Of a DNA stretch of 64,000 bases, positions 4-6,017 are shown one piece after another (the first letter of the stretch is position 1; every line of letters starts with the position of its first letter). The notes beneath the pieces are model-generated. The model was not told the origin of the DNA and did no database searches. It saw nothing but the letters and a program-made list of their open reading frames with translations. The stretch is from Poseidonia sp. GTDB lineage: Archaea; Thermoplasmatota; Poseidoniia; Poseidoniales; Poseidoniaceae. The translations under genes were made by a program, and so were the position numbers. The stretch covers positions 8,558-72,557 of the forward strand of contig JBMZJQ010000002.1 of the NCBI GenBank assembly GCA_049617635.1, given 5' to 3'.

Positions 4-540
4 TTGGAAGCGTTGTTGGCTCTACCGTGCACGCGAATGGAGTTGTTGATGGGTAAATGGCTCGCTGTAGCCACCATCACCGGGGCGGGCGTGTTGCTCC
101 AGATTGCTGGTTTGTTGTTCGCAATCGGTTATCTTGCCTCATCGAACATTCTCTCAACGCCGGAAGTATCCTTCCTTGCCCTTTTGTTGCTCTGCCTCGC
201 AGTGTTGTTGTTTGCAGTGATGGTTGTGGCCCTGGAGTTGGCCCTTGCCATGCGCTCGCACAGCGTCAAAGAAGCCGGTTCGATTCTTGGCCCTGCCGTG
301 CTGGTGATTTTGTTTCCAGCCTTGTTCACACAAGTGATCAATCTCGATGGAATAGAAGCATATTGGTTTGCAATTCCCGTGGTGAATGTTCTTCTTGCGC
401 TTCGTGAACTGTTGATGAACCGAATTGTGGTATCGCATATTCTTGTGTGGTCAATTTCGTCCACCGTGTATGCGTTGAGTGCTGCATACTACGCCTCTCG
501 GCAGTTCAAGCGAGAGGATTTGGTTACAAGCCTGTCCTAG
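4..540 (+). CDS. Membrane permease, C-terminal part (ABC-2-type-like); gene probably begins upstream of the window
   Basis: Open from the window edge and strongly hydrophobic, with several predicted TM helices. No catalytic motifs were recognised. Confidence 0.4.
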   Translation: MEALLALPCTRMELLMGKWLAVATITGAGVLLQIAGLLFAIGYLASSNILSTPEVSFLALLLLCLAVLLFAVMVVALELALAMRSHSVKEAGSILGPAVLVILFPALFTQVINLDGIEAYWFAIPVVNVLLALRELLMNRIVVSHILVWSISSTVYALSAAYYASRQFKREDLVTSLS

Positions 541-2035
541 CCTGGAAAGCAACGATGGCTTCTCGGACGATGGTGACGAGTAAATCGATTTCATCCGATG
601 TGATGTTGAAGTGGGGTGTAAAACGCAGGGCGTTGACGCCACCGTGAATCACGCCCAACCCTCTGCGCCGACACCAAGGTTCAACCGCATCAAAACCAAC
701 CACAGGAAATCCTGTGGGCTCCAATTCCATGCTACAAAGGAGGCCTGTGCCTTGGACCTTGGTGATGATCTCAGGAAACTCCTCTTGGAGGCGTGAAAAC
801 TTCAGAACCATCTCCTTCCCACGCTCACGGATGTTCTCTCTCAAGGCTGGTGTAATGCTTTCCAGAACCGTCGCAGCCGTCTCCAGCGCTCTTGGATTGG
901 TTGTCATGGTGTTTCCATAGATTCCCGTCACGTACAACGAGGCGGCCCGTTCGTTCATACCAAGAACGGAGAGGGGATATTGTCCAGCATTCAGGGCTTT
1001 CGACCATGTCTCCAAATCGGGGGCTTCGCAATCTTGGAATCCTTCGTAATCAATGACGGAGAGGGTACCTTGTCCGCGGATACCTGCTTGAATTGAATCA
1101 ACGAGCAACAACGAGCCGTGTTCTTTGGTCAACTTCCGCGCAGCATCGTAGAATTCTCGAGAAACGCATTGACCAGGATTGCCTTCACCTTGGACTGGCT
1201 CAATGGCCATCAATTCAATGAACACTCCGTTGGATTCTGCGTGGTGGAAGGCTGATTCAAGTGCTTCAACATCGTTCGCTGGGACCAAGATCAAATTGTC
1301 CCTTTGTTGGAAGCTAGCAAGCACCTGATCGTACTTTCCTTTGCAGGAGTGTGACATCTGCGCAGGACGATCGGTTCGACCGTGGAAACCTTGTTCGATG
1401 GCGAGCATTTTGATTTGGTGGCCTTCGTAGCGCCCACCTTTCTGCGTCATCAGTTTGGCATTGACATCCGCAATCCGTAGGCTCACCGTAACAGATTCAG
1501 AGCCGCTGTTCATGCAGATGAATTTTTGAAACGGGCACGAACCTCGTGTGTGCCCGAGTTCTTCTCGAAGTCTGTTGTCCAGCCTTTTCTGGGAAAACGA
1601 TGCGGTCATGACGTTTGCCATCACCCAATTGTCGGCCATAGAATCAATCACGTGTTGGGGTCCGTGGCCTGCGCCCAGCATACCGTATCCACCGTTGTCA
1701 TGGACGACGGCCCCATGGGAAGTAATGATCCATGGACCACGCGCAGCAAGAGCGACATAGGGATTGACCGTTGCAGGATTGTAGAAGTTCACATACCCCT
1801 CCTGCAAGTGCTCGATGAGTGTTGATTCGTCGGACCCTTTGTACACCGATGAAAATTCGTTGGAAAACGAGTCGAACCGATTGGCAGCTTCGGAAAGCGC
1901 AAGACGTAGCGAAGCATCTAATTCGTAAAAATGAGAAATTTCTTCTGAAGTGAGCCCCAACGTGTCCCGTCGTCCGACATATCCACGAATGCGTTCAAGC
2001 ACCGATAACCCGGGGTGGTCAATTGCCTTCTGCAT
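524..2035 (-). CDS. Class-III (PLP-dependent) aminotransferase with N-terminal extension
   Basis: AT-III-like motifs: CMNSGSESV and LLVDSIQAGI-RGQG (variants of NSGTEA / DEVQTG), a candidate PLP lysine in TWSKALNAG, and a C-terminal small domain. At 503 aa it is longer than typical family members. Confidence 0.75.
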   Translation of the reverse strand: MQKAIDHPGLSVLERIRGYVGRRDTLGLTSEEISHFYELDASLRLALSEAANRFDSFSNEFSSVYKGSDESTLIEHLQEGYVNFYNPATVNPYVALAARGPWIITSHGAVVHDNGGYGMLGAGHGPQHVIDSMADNWVMANVMTASFSQKRLDNRLREELGHTRGSCPFQKFICMNSGSESVTVSLRIADVNAKLMTQKGGRYEGHQIKMLAIEQGFHGRTDRPAQMSHSCKGKYDQVLASFQQRDNLILVPANDVEALESAFHHAESNGVFIELMAIEPVQGEGNPGQCVSREFYDAARKLTKEHGSLLLVDSIQAGIRGQGTLSVIDYEGFQDCEAPDLETWSKALNAGQYPLSVLGMNERAASLYVTGIYGNTMTTNPRALETAATVLESITPALRENIRERGKEMVLKFSRLQEEFPEIITKVQGTGLLCSMELEPTGFPVVGFDAVEPWCRRRGLGVIHGGVNALRFTPHFNITSDEIDLLVTIVREAIVAFQARTGL

Positions 2036-2135
2036 GCATGATTATGCGTGACGGAGCCCTTTGAACATTGGCACGAGGCGCTCACAACGACGCGAAAATG
2101 TGCCTGAAATATTACTAAGGTAATATCATACGAAT

Positions 2136-2145
2136 ACTTATATGA
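2136..2145 (+). promoter_or_regulatory. Candidate archaeal TATA box (CTTATATGAG), about 26 nt upstream of the RHH gene ATG; implies a leaderless operon transcript
   Basis: AT-rich TATA-like element in a GC-rich intergenic region. Its spacing to the ATG at 2166 matches the archaeal TATA-to-TSS distance. Confidence 0.35.
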
Positions 2146-2165
2146 GGTTGGTATGAGGCCATGGC

Positions 2166-2336
2166 ATGCCCAAAATCTCGTTGGACATGCCGTCTGAACT
2201 GGTGGAGGATCTCAAATTGCATGTTGGAGATGAGAAGAAATTTGTCAGCCTGGCAGATGCCATTCGAACGGCGTGCAGAAAACTGCTGGACCAACTGGAC
2301 GAAATTGACATGATGCACGGTAGGGGGAAGAACTGA
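2166..2336 (+). CDS. Small ribbon-helix-helix (CopG/NikR/Arc-like) DNA-binding protein, 56 aa, absent from the ORF track
   Basis: Translation MPKISLDMPSELVEDLKLHVGDEKKFVSLADAIRTACRKLLDQLDEIDMMHGRGKN shows an RHH pattern: an N-terminal beta-strand KISLDMP, then two helices. The stop TGA overlaps the FolE ATG by 1 nt (TGATG). Confidence 0.6.
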   Translation: MPKISLDMPSELVEDLKLHVGDEKKFVSLADAIRTACRKLLDQLDEIDMMHGRGKN

Positions 2337-2911
2337 TGGTGACCGAAGAAGAAGCACAACAAGCCATACGCACCATCCTTTCGTATATTGAAGGGGCAGG
2401 TGCCAGCAATAGAGAAGGGTTGGAAGACACCCCCCAACGCGTTGTCGAATCCTGGAAGGAATTGCATGCAGGCTATCAAATGGATGCAAGTGAACTTCTT
2501 CAAGCGACCTTCAACGGCGAAGGCTACGATGGCATCGTTTTGTTGCGAAATATCGAATTTACGTCGACCTGTGAACATCACCTCCTTCCTTTCAGCGGGC
2601 GGGGTCACATCGCCTACATTCCGGTGGAGCGTATTGTCGGCATCAGTAAGCTTGCCCGGATTTTGGACCTTCACGCTCGCCGATTGCAAAATCAGGAGCG
2701 AATAACCAAAGGGATTGCCGACGACCTTGAACGGGAACTTAAGCCGCTTGGCGCTGCCGTGATTTTGGAAGCATCGCACGGTTGTATGCAGTGCAGAGGT
2801 GTTGCAAAGCAAGAGGCCGTCATGACCACTTCGGCCATGCGAGGCGTGTTTTTCGATCGGCCCGAGGCTCGAAGCGAACTCATGCAATTGATTCAACAAC
2901 CACCACTGTGA
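2336..2911 (+). CDS. folE: GTP cyclohydrolase I (type IA)
   Basis: Canonical FolE motifs STCEHHLLPF and ASHGCMQCRGV; 191 aa. Confidence 0.9.
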   Translation: MVTEEEAQQAIRTILSYIEGAGASNREGLEDTPQRVVESWKELHAGYQMDASELLQATFNGEGYDGIVLLRNIEFTSTCEHHLLPFSGRGHIAYIPVERIVGISKLARILDLHARRLQNQERITKGIADDLERELKPLGAAVILEASHGCMQCRGVAKQEAVMTTSAMRGVFFDRPEARSELMQLIQQPPL

Positions 2912-2920
2912 GGGAACTGA

Positions 2921-3580
2921 ATGACCAACATGCCATGTGGATTGTCCGGTGATGTCGTCACCGACAACGCAAGTGATTTGGCAGCAGAATACAACATCGT
3001 CGAGATTTTCCACTCCGTTCAAGGTGAAGGTCATCGAAGTGGAATTCCACACGTGTTTATTCGTTTTGGAAAATGCAACCTTCGCTGTGAATGGTGTGAT
3101 ACCAATTTTGACGAATACACGACCATGTCCGCGCTTGACATTCTGGCTCGCGTGATGGAGTTTCCTTGCAGCAACATCATCTTCACCGGGGGTGAGCCCA
3201 TGTTGAACGACTTGTGGCCGCTGAGTCGTCTGCTTCGACGTCGAGGATATCACCTCTCAATTGAATCAAACGGCACCGTTGAAATTCCGGAGGGTTTACT
3301 CGATTGGATTTGCATTTCTCCAAAAGATCAGATGTATCCAAACGTGGCCGTCCGGCAACGCATTGGAAACGAACTCAAATGTGTGTATGTTGGTCAACCA
3401 CTCAGTCTCTACGATGGCCTCATCGAGGGATTTGACCACCTGTATCTCCAGCCGTGCTACGATGAAACACATTCGGTAGAGGAAAACGGACGCATGTTTG
3501 CACTCACTGAATCCGTGGTGAAGGCCAATCCGACGTGGAGGCTCTCGCTTCAAACACACAAATGGATGGGGATATTGTGA
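2921..3580 (+). CDS. queE: 7-carboxy-7-deazaguanine synthase (radical SAM)
   Basis: QueE-type Cys motif CNLRCEWCDT, FHSVQGEG and the GGEP motif. Confidence 0.9.
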   Translation: MTNMPCGLSGDVVTDNASDLAAEYNIVEIFHSVQGEGHRSGIPHVFIRFGKCNLRCEWCDTNFDEYTTMSALDILARVMEFPCSNIIFTGGEPMLNDLWPLSRLLRRRGYHLSIESNGTVEIPEGLLDWICISPKDQMYPNVAVRQRIGNELKCVYVGQPLSLYDGLIEGFDHLYLQPCYDETHSVEENGRMFALTESVVKANPTWRLSLQTHKWMGIL

Positions 3581-4740
3581 CGAGTAAACAGCGAGCCGTC
3601 ATGGCCTTGAGCGGAGGCATGGACTCGAGTTCCTTGTTGTTGCACCTCTTGAGAGAAGGTTACGAAGTAACGGCACTTTCGTTCAATTATGGACAGAAGC
3701 ATGTCGTTGAGTTGCAACGCGCCAGCGATTTGGTCAAGCACTTGGAAGAACACGGATTGCTTGTTCATCACCATGTGATTGACCTCCAAAGTGCGATGGG
3801 ACTTTTTGCAAGCGATTTGCTCGCAACTGGTGGACCCGTCCCTGAAGGCCACTATGAGGAAGACAACATGAAAGCAACCGTCGTTCCCAATCGTAACGCT
3901 ATCTTTTCTTCGTTGTTGTACGGCACTGCTCTTTCAATTGCAACAACGAACGACAGCAAGGTCTGCGTGGTGTTGGGGGTACACAGTGGGGACCACGCCA
4001 TTTACCCGGACTGTCGACCTGAGTTTTATTCAGCCCTCGAACATGCCTTCGCATTAGGGAATTGGGACAGCCATCTCATCTCGTTCGTCTTGCCCTATTT
4101 GGAAATGGACAAAACTTCCATCCTCAAAGACGCTGAGCAGTCCGTGGATCATCTCAAATTGGATTTTGATGCAGTGTTTTCTCGAACCCTCACCTCCTAC
4201 AGTCCGGATGGAGATGGCAAAAGCCACGGGCGAACCGGTTCTGATGTGGAGCGCATTCTTGCTTTCCATGCTCTTGGGCGACAAGACCCCATTGAATATG
4301 TTGAGCCTTGGGTCACCGTCTTGGAGCATGCTTTGAAGGTCGAGCGAGAGCACAAGGATGCAACCTACCGAGAGAAACTCACAGAACTACAATACCACGT
4401 GACACGAGAACAGGGTACGGAACGGGCGTTCACTGGAATCTACTGGGATGAAGAACGCCCTGGAACCTACACGTGCATTTGTTGCTCAACCTTGTTGTTC
4501 ACCTCGAGCATGAAATTTGAATCCGGTTGCGGGTGGCCTTCGTTCCATTCCGAACACAGTGAAGCGAATATCAAACGAATTGAGGACCGAAGTCACGGTA
4601 TGGTTCGTACCGAGGTTCGCTGCGATCGGTGTGACGCTCACCTCGGGCACGTGTTTAACGACGGTCCCGCGGCATACGGAGGCGAGCGCTACTGCATCAA
4701 CTCAGCATCCATGAACTTTCATCTGGAGGAAGACCAATGA
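3535..4740 (+). CDS. queC: 7-cyano-7-deazaguanine synthase QueC fused to a C-terminal methionine-R-sulfoxide reductase (MsrB) domain
   Basis: N-terminal PP-loop ALSGGMDSS, FNYGQKH and HSGDHAIYPDCR match QueC. The C-terminal approximately 130 aa has MsrB motifs: CxxC...CxxC zinc ribbon, GCGWPSF and catalytic RYCINSA. The true start may be the internal ATG at 3562. Confidence 0.85.
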   Translation: MEALASNTQMDGDIVTSKQRAVMALSGGMDSSSLLLHLLREGYEVTALSFNYGQKHVVELQRASDLVKHLEEHGLLVHHHVIDLQSAMGLFASDLLATGGPVPEGHYEEDNMKATVVPNRNAIFSSLLYGTALSIATTNDSKVCVVLGVHSGDHAIYPDCRPEFYSALEHAFALGNWDSHLISFVLPYLEMDKTSILKDAEQSVDHLKLDFDAVFSRTLTSYSPDGDGKSHGRTGSDVERILAFHALGRQDPIEYVEPWVTVLEHALKVEREHKDATYREKLTELQYHVTREQGTERAFTGIYWDEERPGTYTCICCSTLLFTSSMKFESGCGWPSFHSEHSEANIKRIEDRSHGMVRTEVRCDRCDAHLGHVFNDGPAAYGGERYCINSASMNFHLEEDQ

Positions 4741-5192
4741 CCACCACCATCAAGCGTTATGTTGAGACCGATACCGGCCACCGTGTGCCAAATCACAAGT
4801 CCAAATGCAAACATCTGCACGGCCACAGGTACCGGTTTGAAGCTGAAATTGAGGGCGATGTTGTCCAAGAAAGCGGTGTTTCGGATGAAGGGATGCTGAT
4901 GGATTTTGGCGATATCAGCAGCGTCTTGATGGAACATGTACACGATGTCATTGACCATGCATTTGTCCTTTACGAAGGCGATAGCGAAGCCAAACATGCA
5001 TGCGCTGCCATGGGTGAAGGACACCGAACCGTCATCGTACCCTTCATTCCGACCGCTGAGAACCTTGCCAAGTGGGCGTTTGAACAGGTCGAGCCGCACA
5101 TCAAAAGCGTCTATGGAAACCGGTTGCGTTTGGTCGCCATGCATTGCCGAGAGACGCCGAAATCAATCGCCAGTTGGCGACCGTTACGATAA
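4737..5192 (+). CDS. queD: 6-carboxy-5,6,7,8-tetrahydropterin synthase
   Basis: PTPS/QueD motifs (CxxxHGH: KCKHLHGHRY) and typical size. A 4-nt overlap with queC suggests coupling. Confidence 0.9.
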   Translation: MTTTIKRYVETDTGHRVPNHKSKCKHLHGHRYRFEAEIEGDVVQESGVSDEGMLMDFGDISSVLMEHVHDVIDHAFVLYEGDSEAKHACAAMGEGHRTVIVPFIPTAENLAKWAFEQVEPHIKSVYGNRLRLVAMHCRETPKSIASWRPLR

Positions 5193-6017
5193 CCTTCGTC
5201 GATGTTCCTTCTTCCAATTTGGATCGCCCTGACTAAATTGAAGGGCAGTGGTTGCTTCAACAAATGCGCCGATCAAGCGAGTCGATTCCTCATTGCTTGG
5301 CGTTCCTTTCAGGAGGGTTCGTTTCATGGTCTGTTCAACCGATGCCGTACGCTCATCGGGACCAGAGAGAGCATTTGACCATTGTTCGATGGAGGTCAAC
5401 AAGGCAGTTCGTACCGACGGCTCCATGCTCGTTTGAAGGGGAACAATATCAGGAAGGCCCGGATCTTTGCCCTGTTGGGACAGAACACGACTGCGATGAA
5501 TCTCGTACACCACAGCGTTTACTGCGTGGCTGAGATTGGCGATTGGGTAGCCTTCCCACGTTGGAAGCGTGATGAAGTAATCGCATGCAGCCAGATCTTC
5601 CGTGGAGAGTCCTTTGCCTTCCTCGCCGAAGACAATGGCAATTCTGCCACCGGCTTGCTCTTCCCTCTGAATCATGTCCCAAGGATACAAAAAATGACGG
5701 AAGAGGGTTTTGTCACCCACTTCGCGTTTTCCCGATGTACCCAATATTGCGCGACAATCTTCGGCGGCCTCACCAATGCTCGCAAACACGGATGCATCGT
5801 CAAGAACCCGTTGAGCATGCTTCGCACGAGCCCGTGTTTCCTCGTCGTCGGGTGAACACTTTGGATTGACCAATCGGAGGTCATCGAATCCATAATTCAG
5901 CATGGACCGGCAAATGGCACCCAAGTTCCCTGGATGGGTCACACCAACCAGCACGACCGCAACTTGAACCAGCCCGCTCGGTAACGGAATGTCTTGGCGC
6001 TCACCCATCAACCTCAC
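5184..6017 (-). CDS. SpoU/TrmH-family (SPOUT) RNA 2'-O-methyltransferase with C-terminal extension
   Basis: SPOUT motifs VVLVGVTHPGNLGAICRSM and IVFGEEGKGLS. It is the last gene of the r-protein operon. Confidence 0.75.
   Translation of the reverse strand: MRLMGERQDIPLPSGLVQVAVVLVGVTHPGNLGAICRSMLNYGFDDLRLVNPKCSPDDEETRARAKHAQRVLDDASVFASIGEAAEDCRAILGTSGKREVGDKTLFRHFLYPWDMIQREEQAGGRIAIVFGEEGKGLSTEDLAACDYFITLPTWEGYPIANLSHAVNAVVYEIHRSRVLSQQGKDPGLPDIVPLQTSMEPSVRTALLTSIEQWSNALSGPDERTASVEQTMKRTLLKGTPSNEESTRLIGAFVEATTALQFSQGDPNWKKEHRRRLS

Follow-up and report, generated by a model that had tools for sequence, protein, structure and literature searches.

The 64-kb stretch of Poseidonia sp. DNA analysed here (contig JBMZJQ010000002.1; "the window" in the following, numbered from its first letter) contains, between 2166 and 5192, a co-directional block of genes for the enzyme families of preQ0 (7-cyano-7-deazaguanine, the archaeosine precursor) synthesis. 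The block is headed by a gene for a ribbon-helix-helix (RHH) protein of 56 amino acids (aa), and an array of three operator boxes lies directly in front of it. We describe this gene and its operator, and discuss the RHH protein as a candidate regulator of preQ0 supply.

The RHH gene and its operon

The features of the locus are as follows. Box scores refer to a position weight matrix (PWM).

2108..2116, no strand: operator box 1, AATATTACT, a 9-bp palindrome of the AGTAWTACT type; PWM 13.2 bits, best single site in the window
2119..2127, no strand: operator box 2, GGTAATATC, 11 bp past box 1; PWM 10.6 bits
2130..2138, no strand: operator box 3, ACGAATACT, 11 bp past box 2; PWM 8.3 bits
2138..2143, plus strand: TATA box TTATAT, 28 nucleotides (nt) before the RHH ATG, centre about -25.5; conserved columns +6 to +11 in 75 aligned promoters
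2166-2336, plus strand: RHH DNA-binding protein, 56 aa, first cistron; starts MPKISLDMP, full sequence MPKISLDMPSELVEDLKLHVGDEKKFVSLADAIRTACRKLLDQLDEIDMMHGRGKN
2336-2911, plus strand: FolE, GTP cyclohydrolase I; PF01227 6e-63, TIGR00063 198.6 bits (above the cut-off of 181.6)
2921-3580, plus strand: QueE-like radical SAM protein (7-carboxy-7-deazaguanine synthase); TIGR04508 1.3e-37, 129.6 bits (under the equivalog cut-off of 240), Radical_SAM 6e-10
3577-4740 (other starts 3562 or 3535), plus strand: QueC-MsrB fusion; Pfam QueC 7e-40 and SelR 2e-50
4737-5192, plus strand: QueD, 6-carboxytetrahydropterin synthase; PF01242 5.6e-26, TIGR03367 82.5 bits (below the cut-off of 89.25)

The first-pass annotation of this DNA had placed the RHH gene as first cistron with a stop codon overlapping the FolE start, and this is confirmed: the TGA at 2334-2336 shares its A with the ATG at 2336, giving TGATG. 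All four preQ0 enzyme families (GTP_cyclohydroI, Radical_SAM, QueC and PTPS) are present and co-directional, with QueE as the best NCBIfam match of the Radical_SAM protein. The same annotation had described overlaps of 1-4 nt throughout the FolE-QueE-QueC-QueD block. Its common direction holds; the overlaps do so only in part. FolE and QueE are separated by a 9-nt gap, and QueE overlaps QueC by 4 nt only with the GTG start at 3577, the gene callers having picked ATG 3562 or GTG 3535. At the following junction the QueC-MsrB stop and the QueD start form an ATGA overlap.

A scan of GTDB species representatives gave at least 526 genomes with a relative, and the best 80, together with nine metagenomic loci, were analysed as 89 Poseidoniales loci. 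The proposed RHH-FolE linkage in homologous genomes was found in all 89 of them: folE follows the RHH gene directly in 83, and in the other six one gene lies in between. In 81 of 88 loci the RHH stop and the FolE start lie -8 to +9 nt apart. Both queE and queC are present in 88 of the 89, and the complete order RHH-FolE-QueE-QueC-MsrB-QueD occurs in 66, with most of the others ending early or without MsrB. The flanking genes vary among the 89 loci and the RHH-que linkage stays. This includes the six exceptions (L005-L009 and L059), which have low GC, an unfused QueC and wholly different flanks, and which probably represent the MGIIb group. The gene inserted between RHH and folE in L005-L009 (6171-7010) and L059 encodes a predicted membrane protein of 249-279 aa that is without a Pfam or NCBIfam match; it is assigned to the same operon because of its ATGA overlap with the RHH stop.

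The small open reading frame (ORF) in the window is a real, conserved RHH gene with a predicted RHH fold, as the first-pass annotation had supposed. Its homologues fall into 1360 clusters at 90% identity. The organisms named for these clusters are Poseidoniales or broader (Euryarchaeota, Thermoplasmatota, Methanobacteriota), and the protein names, where given, are "RHH domain-containing" or "CopG family". An exhaustive HMMER search of 1.84 billion representatives returned only 109 proteins at E<=0.001, so that the family is tightly bounded. Compared with 89 orthologues, the gene shows a ratio of nonsynonymous to synonymous differences (pN/pS) of 0.13 (pN 0.12; pS 0.87, with synonymous sites saturated).

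The AlphaFold2 (AF2) monomer model of the protein (predicted local distance difference test, pLDDT, 86.9) has the strand-helix-helix order of the fold: residues 1-9 are extended and followed by a helix (10-17), an 11-residue loop and a second helix (29-50). If the family profile is compared to the PDB, the top three matches are RHH proteins, namely ORF56 (E 0.016) and NikR (E 0.08-0.13). The top two Foldseek matches are NikR and the RHH domain of ParD, with template modelling (TM) scores of about 0.55-0.6 and non-significant E-values. Such weak scores are expected for a protein of 56 residues only, and both approaches agree on RHH.

A profile made from the most distant matches retrieves 3744 proteins from Methanosarcinales, Archaeoglobi, Halobacteria and others. 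Pairwise identity within this wider family is 54-87%, with 22 invariant columns (MPK..[VL][ED].P..L.D...HVG...KFV...A.R...RK.LD..D.ID...GR). Conservation, remarkable for a protein of this size, extends beyond the DNA-reading strand to the HVGxxKKFV loop, the RHGR tail and an amphipathic extension of helix 2; a dimer-dimer interface or a small-molecule pocket could be formed here.

A tandem operator that accompanies the RHH gene

A palindromic operator had been suspected near 2100-2165, and the three tandem boxes at 2108-2138 lie in this region. The operator matrix was built as a column profile from 75 aligned orthologous promoters, and spacings were counted in 88 distinct upstream regions. The scans covered 64 kb of the source genome and, from other genomes, loci centred on the RHH gene that add up to about 1.5 Mb (948 kb for Poseidoniales and 524 kb for the wider family). 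In the aligned Poseidoniales promoters TAWTAC cores begin at -56, -45 and -34 from the ATG, and the proximal box starts at -34 in 49 of the 88 promoters. A spacing of 11 nt was counted 143 times, 22 nt 79 times and 33 nt 16 times, with most other spacings in single digits. Columns outside the alignment anchor lengthen each box to the 9-bp palindrome AGTAWTACT, and the proximal box merges into the conserved TTATAT. In the window, box 3 sits at the position of the TFB recognition element (BRE), and its final T also opens the TATA box.

The array stands out clearly from its surroundings. The pair of boxes 1 and 2 scores 23.8 bits, and no unrelated site in the window scores more than 5.8. The three boxes combined reach 32.1 bits; the highest value in 200 control shuffles of the window was 17.1. 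The next unrelated three-box site in the 64-kb window scores below zero, and there is no other operator site in it. Among the 89 RHH promoters of Poseidoniales 85 have the tandem motif; elsewhere in these loci six weak matches were found, and the wider-family loci contain four.

The TATA-like element noted about 26 nt upstream of the RHH ATG was found as TTATAT, its centre lying about 25-26 nt before the start codon. The distance between TATA box and ATG is fixed and C is preferred at -1 (37 of 54), which would fit a leaderless transcript. The first-pass annotation had used the terms "repressor", "dedicated" and "leaderless" for this system, and all three denote properties that we infer. A search of Rfam with positions 1800-5400 on both strands gave no match at E<=1 and hence no preQ1-I, preQ1-II or preQ1-III riboswitch. 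Control by a riboswitch or another RNA element was rejected for this reason.

Support comes from other archaeal classes as well, where the RHH family is tied, in independent architectures, to preQ0 synthesis or a preQ0 transporter. In Archaeoglobus sulfaticallidus and the haloarchaeon Salinirubellus a Vut_1 gene directly follows, or overlaps, the RHH gene. These Vut_1 genes match TIGR00697, "queuosine precursor transporter", with 197 and 152 bits (cut-off 51). The YhhQ/COG1738 family imports preQ0 in E. coli, and the same has been predicted for archaea (PMC5372724). In another lineage the RHH gene heads queC-DUF366-queE-queD. If all 88 wider-family loci are considered, the RHH gene is followed by a transporter in 21 and by que genes in 6, and it follows que genes in 10. 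Two further loci have a convergent queC and three have que genes within 5 kb; the remainder are 23 solitary genes of Methanosarcina type and 23 uninformative loci, many of them on short contigs.

The operator, too, is found beyond Poseidoniales. Of 62 non-Methanosarcina loci that lay outside the matrix, 20 have a box pair of at least 13 bits upstream of RHH, with 0.0007 expected per promoter window. In Archaeoglobus three tandem boxes precede a BRE/TATA-like element upstream of RHH, and tandem boxes also lie upstream of RHH in the L094/L176 lineages and in many GC-rich saline-metagenome loci (GC 0.51-0.69). In L106, L131 and L155 (GC 0.50-0.58; L106 and L131 are of saline-metagenome origin) the RHH gene has its own promoter downstream of queC, and a two-box dyad stands before the RHH gene and again directly before queD. 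In L106 and L131 the dyad region at queD also faces a divergent transporter gene. The box thus travels with the regulator gene and marks que promoters, which is the pattern of a dedicated regulon.

Some further details of these loci may be added. In A. sulfaticallidus (L090) a radical SAM/SPASM gene of the AF0577 type (TIGR04084, 3857-4918) lies directly upstream of RHH-yhhQ in the same direction, and a second pair of AATAATACC boxes is located farther upstream of the three-box array. In L094/L095 (5857-6414 and 7470-8195) and in L176 the RHH-headed operon has the DUF366 gene between queC and queE; L094/L095 add a sugar-1-phosphate nucleotidyltransferase gene after queD, and the L176 contig stops inside queD. 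In the loci of Methanosarcina type (L093, L096 and 21 like them) the RHH gene is flanked by several small TRAM-domain genes in a row on one side and by two convergent methionine-synthase-like genes (NF004712) on the other.

The cysteine-less QueC and the neighbouring genes

The gene between queE and queD had been annotated as QueC. This identification stands, and the fused MsrB domain had been missed. Canonical QueC carries the motifs SGGxDS and C(x)8CxxCxxC (PMC13082051), and a 2026 preprint takes the zinc motif as defining. The Poseidoniales QueC keeps SGGMDS and has lost the zinc motif, all four cysteines being replaced (TSYSPDGDGKSHGRTGSDVERILAF; aligned to canonical QueC); its TIGR00364 score in the window is 134.1 bits, under the cut-off of 150.3. 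Examples are the window protein (3577-4740), L010 (7397-8587) and L005 (8086-8871), the last from a low-GC, presumed MGIIb locus with an unfused QueC that is equally without the zinc cysteines. The fusion with MsrB occurs in 69 of the 89 loci, and the fused MsrB domain is complete, with two CxxC pairs and the catalytic RYCINS. Median identity among species is 61% for QueC and 75% for MsrB.

Upstream of the operon a class-III aminotransferase gene is divergent (524-2035, minus strand). In related species its conserved N-terminus (MFKG...) begins at a distance of exactly 98-102 nt from the ATG of the RHH gene. This N-terminus is lost in the window and in L004 through an in-frame TAA at codon 9, and the ORF restarts at M12 (2035), the extended frame being 524-2069 (minus strand). 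As the aminotransferase start has this fixed distance from the RHH ATG, the box array in the shared control region (2036-2165) would fill the space between two divergent core promoters, and the aminotransferase might be co-regulated.

On the other side a TrmJ-like SpoU tRNA 2'-O-methyltransferase gene (5184-6017, minus strand) is convergent and overlaps the 3' end of QueD by 9 nt. Beyond it lie genes for the ribosomal proteins S17e, L31e, L39e and S19e, and farther along the window there are genes for a tRNA-splicing endonuclease and archease (L178, 15847-16932 and 19056-19550). The gene lists obtained for the window contain no tgtA/arcS and no ftsZ.

Possible control of preQ0 supply by the RHH protein

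Taken from sequence, the most probable interpretation (about 0.7) is that the 56-aa RHH protein is a transcription factor of a narrowly conserved euryarchaeal family which controls preQ0 supply as an autoregulated repressor. RHH dimers would bind the three AGTAWTACT-like boxes, which are one helical turn apart and abut or overlap the BRE/TATA elements of the only promoter of the operon. Palindromic 9-mers at this distance are the classical operator layout of RHH proteins, and the dimers would therefore be placed on one face of the DNA. Cooperative occupancy of the boxes could block TFB and TBP and so repress a probably leaderless rhh-folE-queE-queC(msrB)-queD transcript. As the regulator is usually the first cistron, negative autoregulation would be the consequence. 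Translation of FolE might follow from the stop/start overlap together with a purine-rich stretch in the last RHH codons.

The position of the array differs between lineages. In Poseidoniales and Archaeoglobus it extends as far as the BRE position and covers it, and in the GC-rich saline-metagenome and L094-type loci it is found at -28 to -3 from the ATG, corresponding to the TATA/start region of a leaderless gene. Repression by occlusion of TBP/TFB or of RNA polymerase is favoured because it is the one mechanism that fits all box positions. This would be in agreement with repressors of the CopG/Arc/omega kind, which are encoded by the first gene of their own operon, whose dimers bind cooperatively to promoter-overlapping repeats about one turn apart (as we infer for the window protein), and which require no effector. 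These repressors control plasmid or phage functions, whereas the RHH gene described here is chromosomal, conserved across archaeal classes, tied to the precursor pathway of a tRNA modification and preceded by an archaeal BRE/TATA promoter.

Several points weigh against this interpretation. The window protein has no match to Pfam RHH_1 at E<=1; on the supporting side, the family members P0297, P0271 and P0264 pass the cut-off of that model (20.5 bits) with 26.5, 22.0 and 20.9 bits. The pairing of the RHH protein with the boxes is one by association. An array upstream of the TATA box can also serve activation in archaea, and the arrays of Poseidoniales and Archaeoglobus are so placed. Given the extent of the operator scan, more targets may be present elsewhere in the genome. 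In the 23 Methanosarcina-type loci, about a quarter of the wider-family loci, the RHH gene stands alone: que genes are missing from its neighbourhood, and no box was found upstream. Finally, preQ0 is assumed as the end product of the operon, since QueE, QueC and QueD score under the NCBIfam equivalog cut-offs and QueC is without its zinc motif.

A further step would be the sensing of a metabolite. A metabolite of the pathway, preQ0 or one next to it, may serve as co-repressor, with the alpha1-alpha2 loop (HVGxxKKFV, invariant and non-canonical) and the DxIDxRHGR tail as candidate surfaces. A co-repressor of preQ0 type is attractive because both synthesis and uptake genes appear to be controlled. 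The widest form of this idea, a pan-euryarchaeal protein sensor of 7-deazaguanine precursors whose loop and tail bind preQ0 or CDG (7-carboxy-7-deazaguanine) and which shuts down que synthesis and YhhQ salvage, is tentative and in our opinion rather unlikely as a whole. MetJ and NikR would be models for this. In both, the RHH module reads short tandem or inverted repeats and represses the genes of one pathway with a pathway-related ligand, a ligand that for the window protein can only be presumed, and NikR is among its top structural and profile matches. Both have extra sequence or a separate ligand domain; the 56-aa window protein offers nothing beyond the RHH fold except an extended loop and tail. 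Metabolite sensing by such a protein, with no recognisable ligand domain, is speculative, and this also counts against the proposed control.

Among the alternatives, activation fares best, although we regard it as improbable. The RHH protein would bind the same boxes and recruit TFB/TBP to a weak promoter, resulting in positive autoregulation. This could be argued from the location of the array upstream of the TATA box in Poseidoniales (-57 to -28 from the ATG) and Archaeoglobus, and from the CdrS sites of Haloferax volcanii, which are mostly 41-110 nt upstream of transcription starts, with repression of cdrS lowering ftsZ1 (PMC8406309). However, the box nearest to the gene sits at the BRE position and has one base in common with the TATA box, and positive feedback on a biosynthetic operon would be unusual. 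The boxes at -28 to -3 in the GC-rich saline-metagenome and L094/L176-type loci cover the expected TATA/start, where only occlusion fits.

Somewhat less probable still is that the protein is the Poseidoniales counterpart of CdrS/aCcr1, a global factor of division timing for which the preQ0 operon would be one of many targets or a mere gene location. The resemblance to these proteins is considerable. CdrS (NF058555) is the best NCBIfam match of the window protein and its relatives, aCcr1 (NF053762) also matches relatives, and conservation of the RHH protein is very strong (54-70% identity across archaeal classes). The aCcr1 protein of Sulfolobales is a 58-aa single-domain RHH acting as a dimer, and it represses through a 9-bp palindromic box (about AGTAATACN), of which core promoters contain one or two copies. 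AGTAWTACT is nearly identical to the aCcr1-box as published, A(T/G)G(A)TA(G)A(T/G)TACN, a match of motif text that compares sequence alone; the aCcr1-box is bound in electrophoretic mobility shift assays (EMSA), and the CdrS motif is described as similar (PMC9976878). In Saccharolobus islandicus the queuine/archaeosine tRNA-ribosyltransferase operon (SiRe_0018/0019) is among the 17 genes most repressed upon aCcr1 overexpression (PMC9976878). Haloarchaeal CdrS is likewise a small RHH first cistron, co-transcribed with its functional partner in a two- or multi-gene operon, and has a symmetric DNA motif (PMC7439475, PMC8406309).

Scores and gene neighbourhood point in another direction. The window protein reaches 15.1 bits on the CdrS model and its relatives 14-36 bits, compared to a curated cut-off of 100; the metagenomic member P0172 obtains only 24.5 bits. 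On the aCcr1 model (cut-off 60) the window protein has no match and the relatives score at most 27.2 bits. The haloarchaeal members of the family (Salinirubellus, Halorubrum, Halomarina) are a separate protein from CdrS, as they adjoin yhhQ, whereas published CdrS adjoins ftsZ2, and no FtsZ signature occurs near the family: the tubulin/FtsZ pattern GGG[TS]G[ST]G is absent from 180 sequences (1.59 Mb) around family members, and no FtsZ Pfam domain appears in the listed contexts. The neighbouring genes in the window are those of the preQ0 pathway and not of cell division. In contrast, aCcr1 is not encoded in a que operon and has viral homologues, none of which were found for the window family in IMG/VR. 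Moreover, with few exceptions the tandem boxes of the scanned sequence lie at RHH and que promoters. Membership in CdrS or aCcr1 was therefore rejected on scores and synteny, and we treat the RHH family as a putative sister of both that would have kept an ancestral DNA specificity and become tied to preQ0 supply.

Very improbable, finally, is that the boxes are promoter elements or the site of another factor and the small protein an antitoxin-like protein or enzyme adaptor: RHH proteins do serve as antitoxins, one family member bears the NCBI name ParD, and box-binding by the RHH protein is a deduction, but no context contains a toxin-like partner (the downstream genes are folE, yhhQ or que), the boxes accompany the RHH gene whether a transporter, que genes or nothing lies downstream, their layout is the classical one of RHH operators, and the related aCcr1 binds nearly the same 9-mer in EMSA (PMC9976878). 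The type II toxin-antitoxin explanation was rejected, as no toxin family is adjacent in any context.

With the proposed repressor the novelty would lie in the regulon and the family, since an autoregulated RHH repressor with a tandem operator is of a well-known kind. To our knowledge nothing is known about the regulation of archaeosine/preQ0 synthesis or salvage in archaea; the bacterial equivalents of these genes are under preQ1 riboswitches. Full-text literature searches gave no description of a protein regulator for this pathway in archaea, in line with the statement of the first-pass annotation that no dedicated RHH repressor of deazapurine biosynthesis had been described, to which the repression of the tgt-like operon by aCcr1 is a partial precedent (PMC9976878). 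The RHH protein is probably the first protein regulator seen for the archaeosine precursor pathway. The genes under preQ1 riboswitches are the same, namely operons of the queCDEF type and the transporter yhhQ/COG1738 (PMC5372724). These riboswitches are bacterial RNA elements with a proven ligand, whereas the system described here would be a protein-based functional analogue in archaea; if the sensor idea holds, it would do in archaea what the preQ1 riboswitch does in bacteria.

The analysis yields a candidate regulator, an operator sequence and a predicted regulon consisting of the que genes, the YhhQ transporter and the regulator itself. Conservation of the three extends from marine Poseidoniales through Archaeoglobus to the saline-metagenome loci, and the question thereby becomes directly testable. 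It also separates a large set of proteins known only as "CopG family" from the similar cell-cycle regulators CdrS and aCcr1. If the sensor idea holds, the ancestry and DNA-box specificity shared with these two would hint at an ancient regulatory link of archaeosine supply with the cell cycle.

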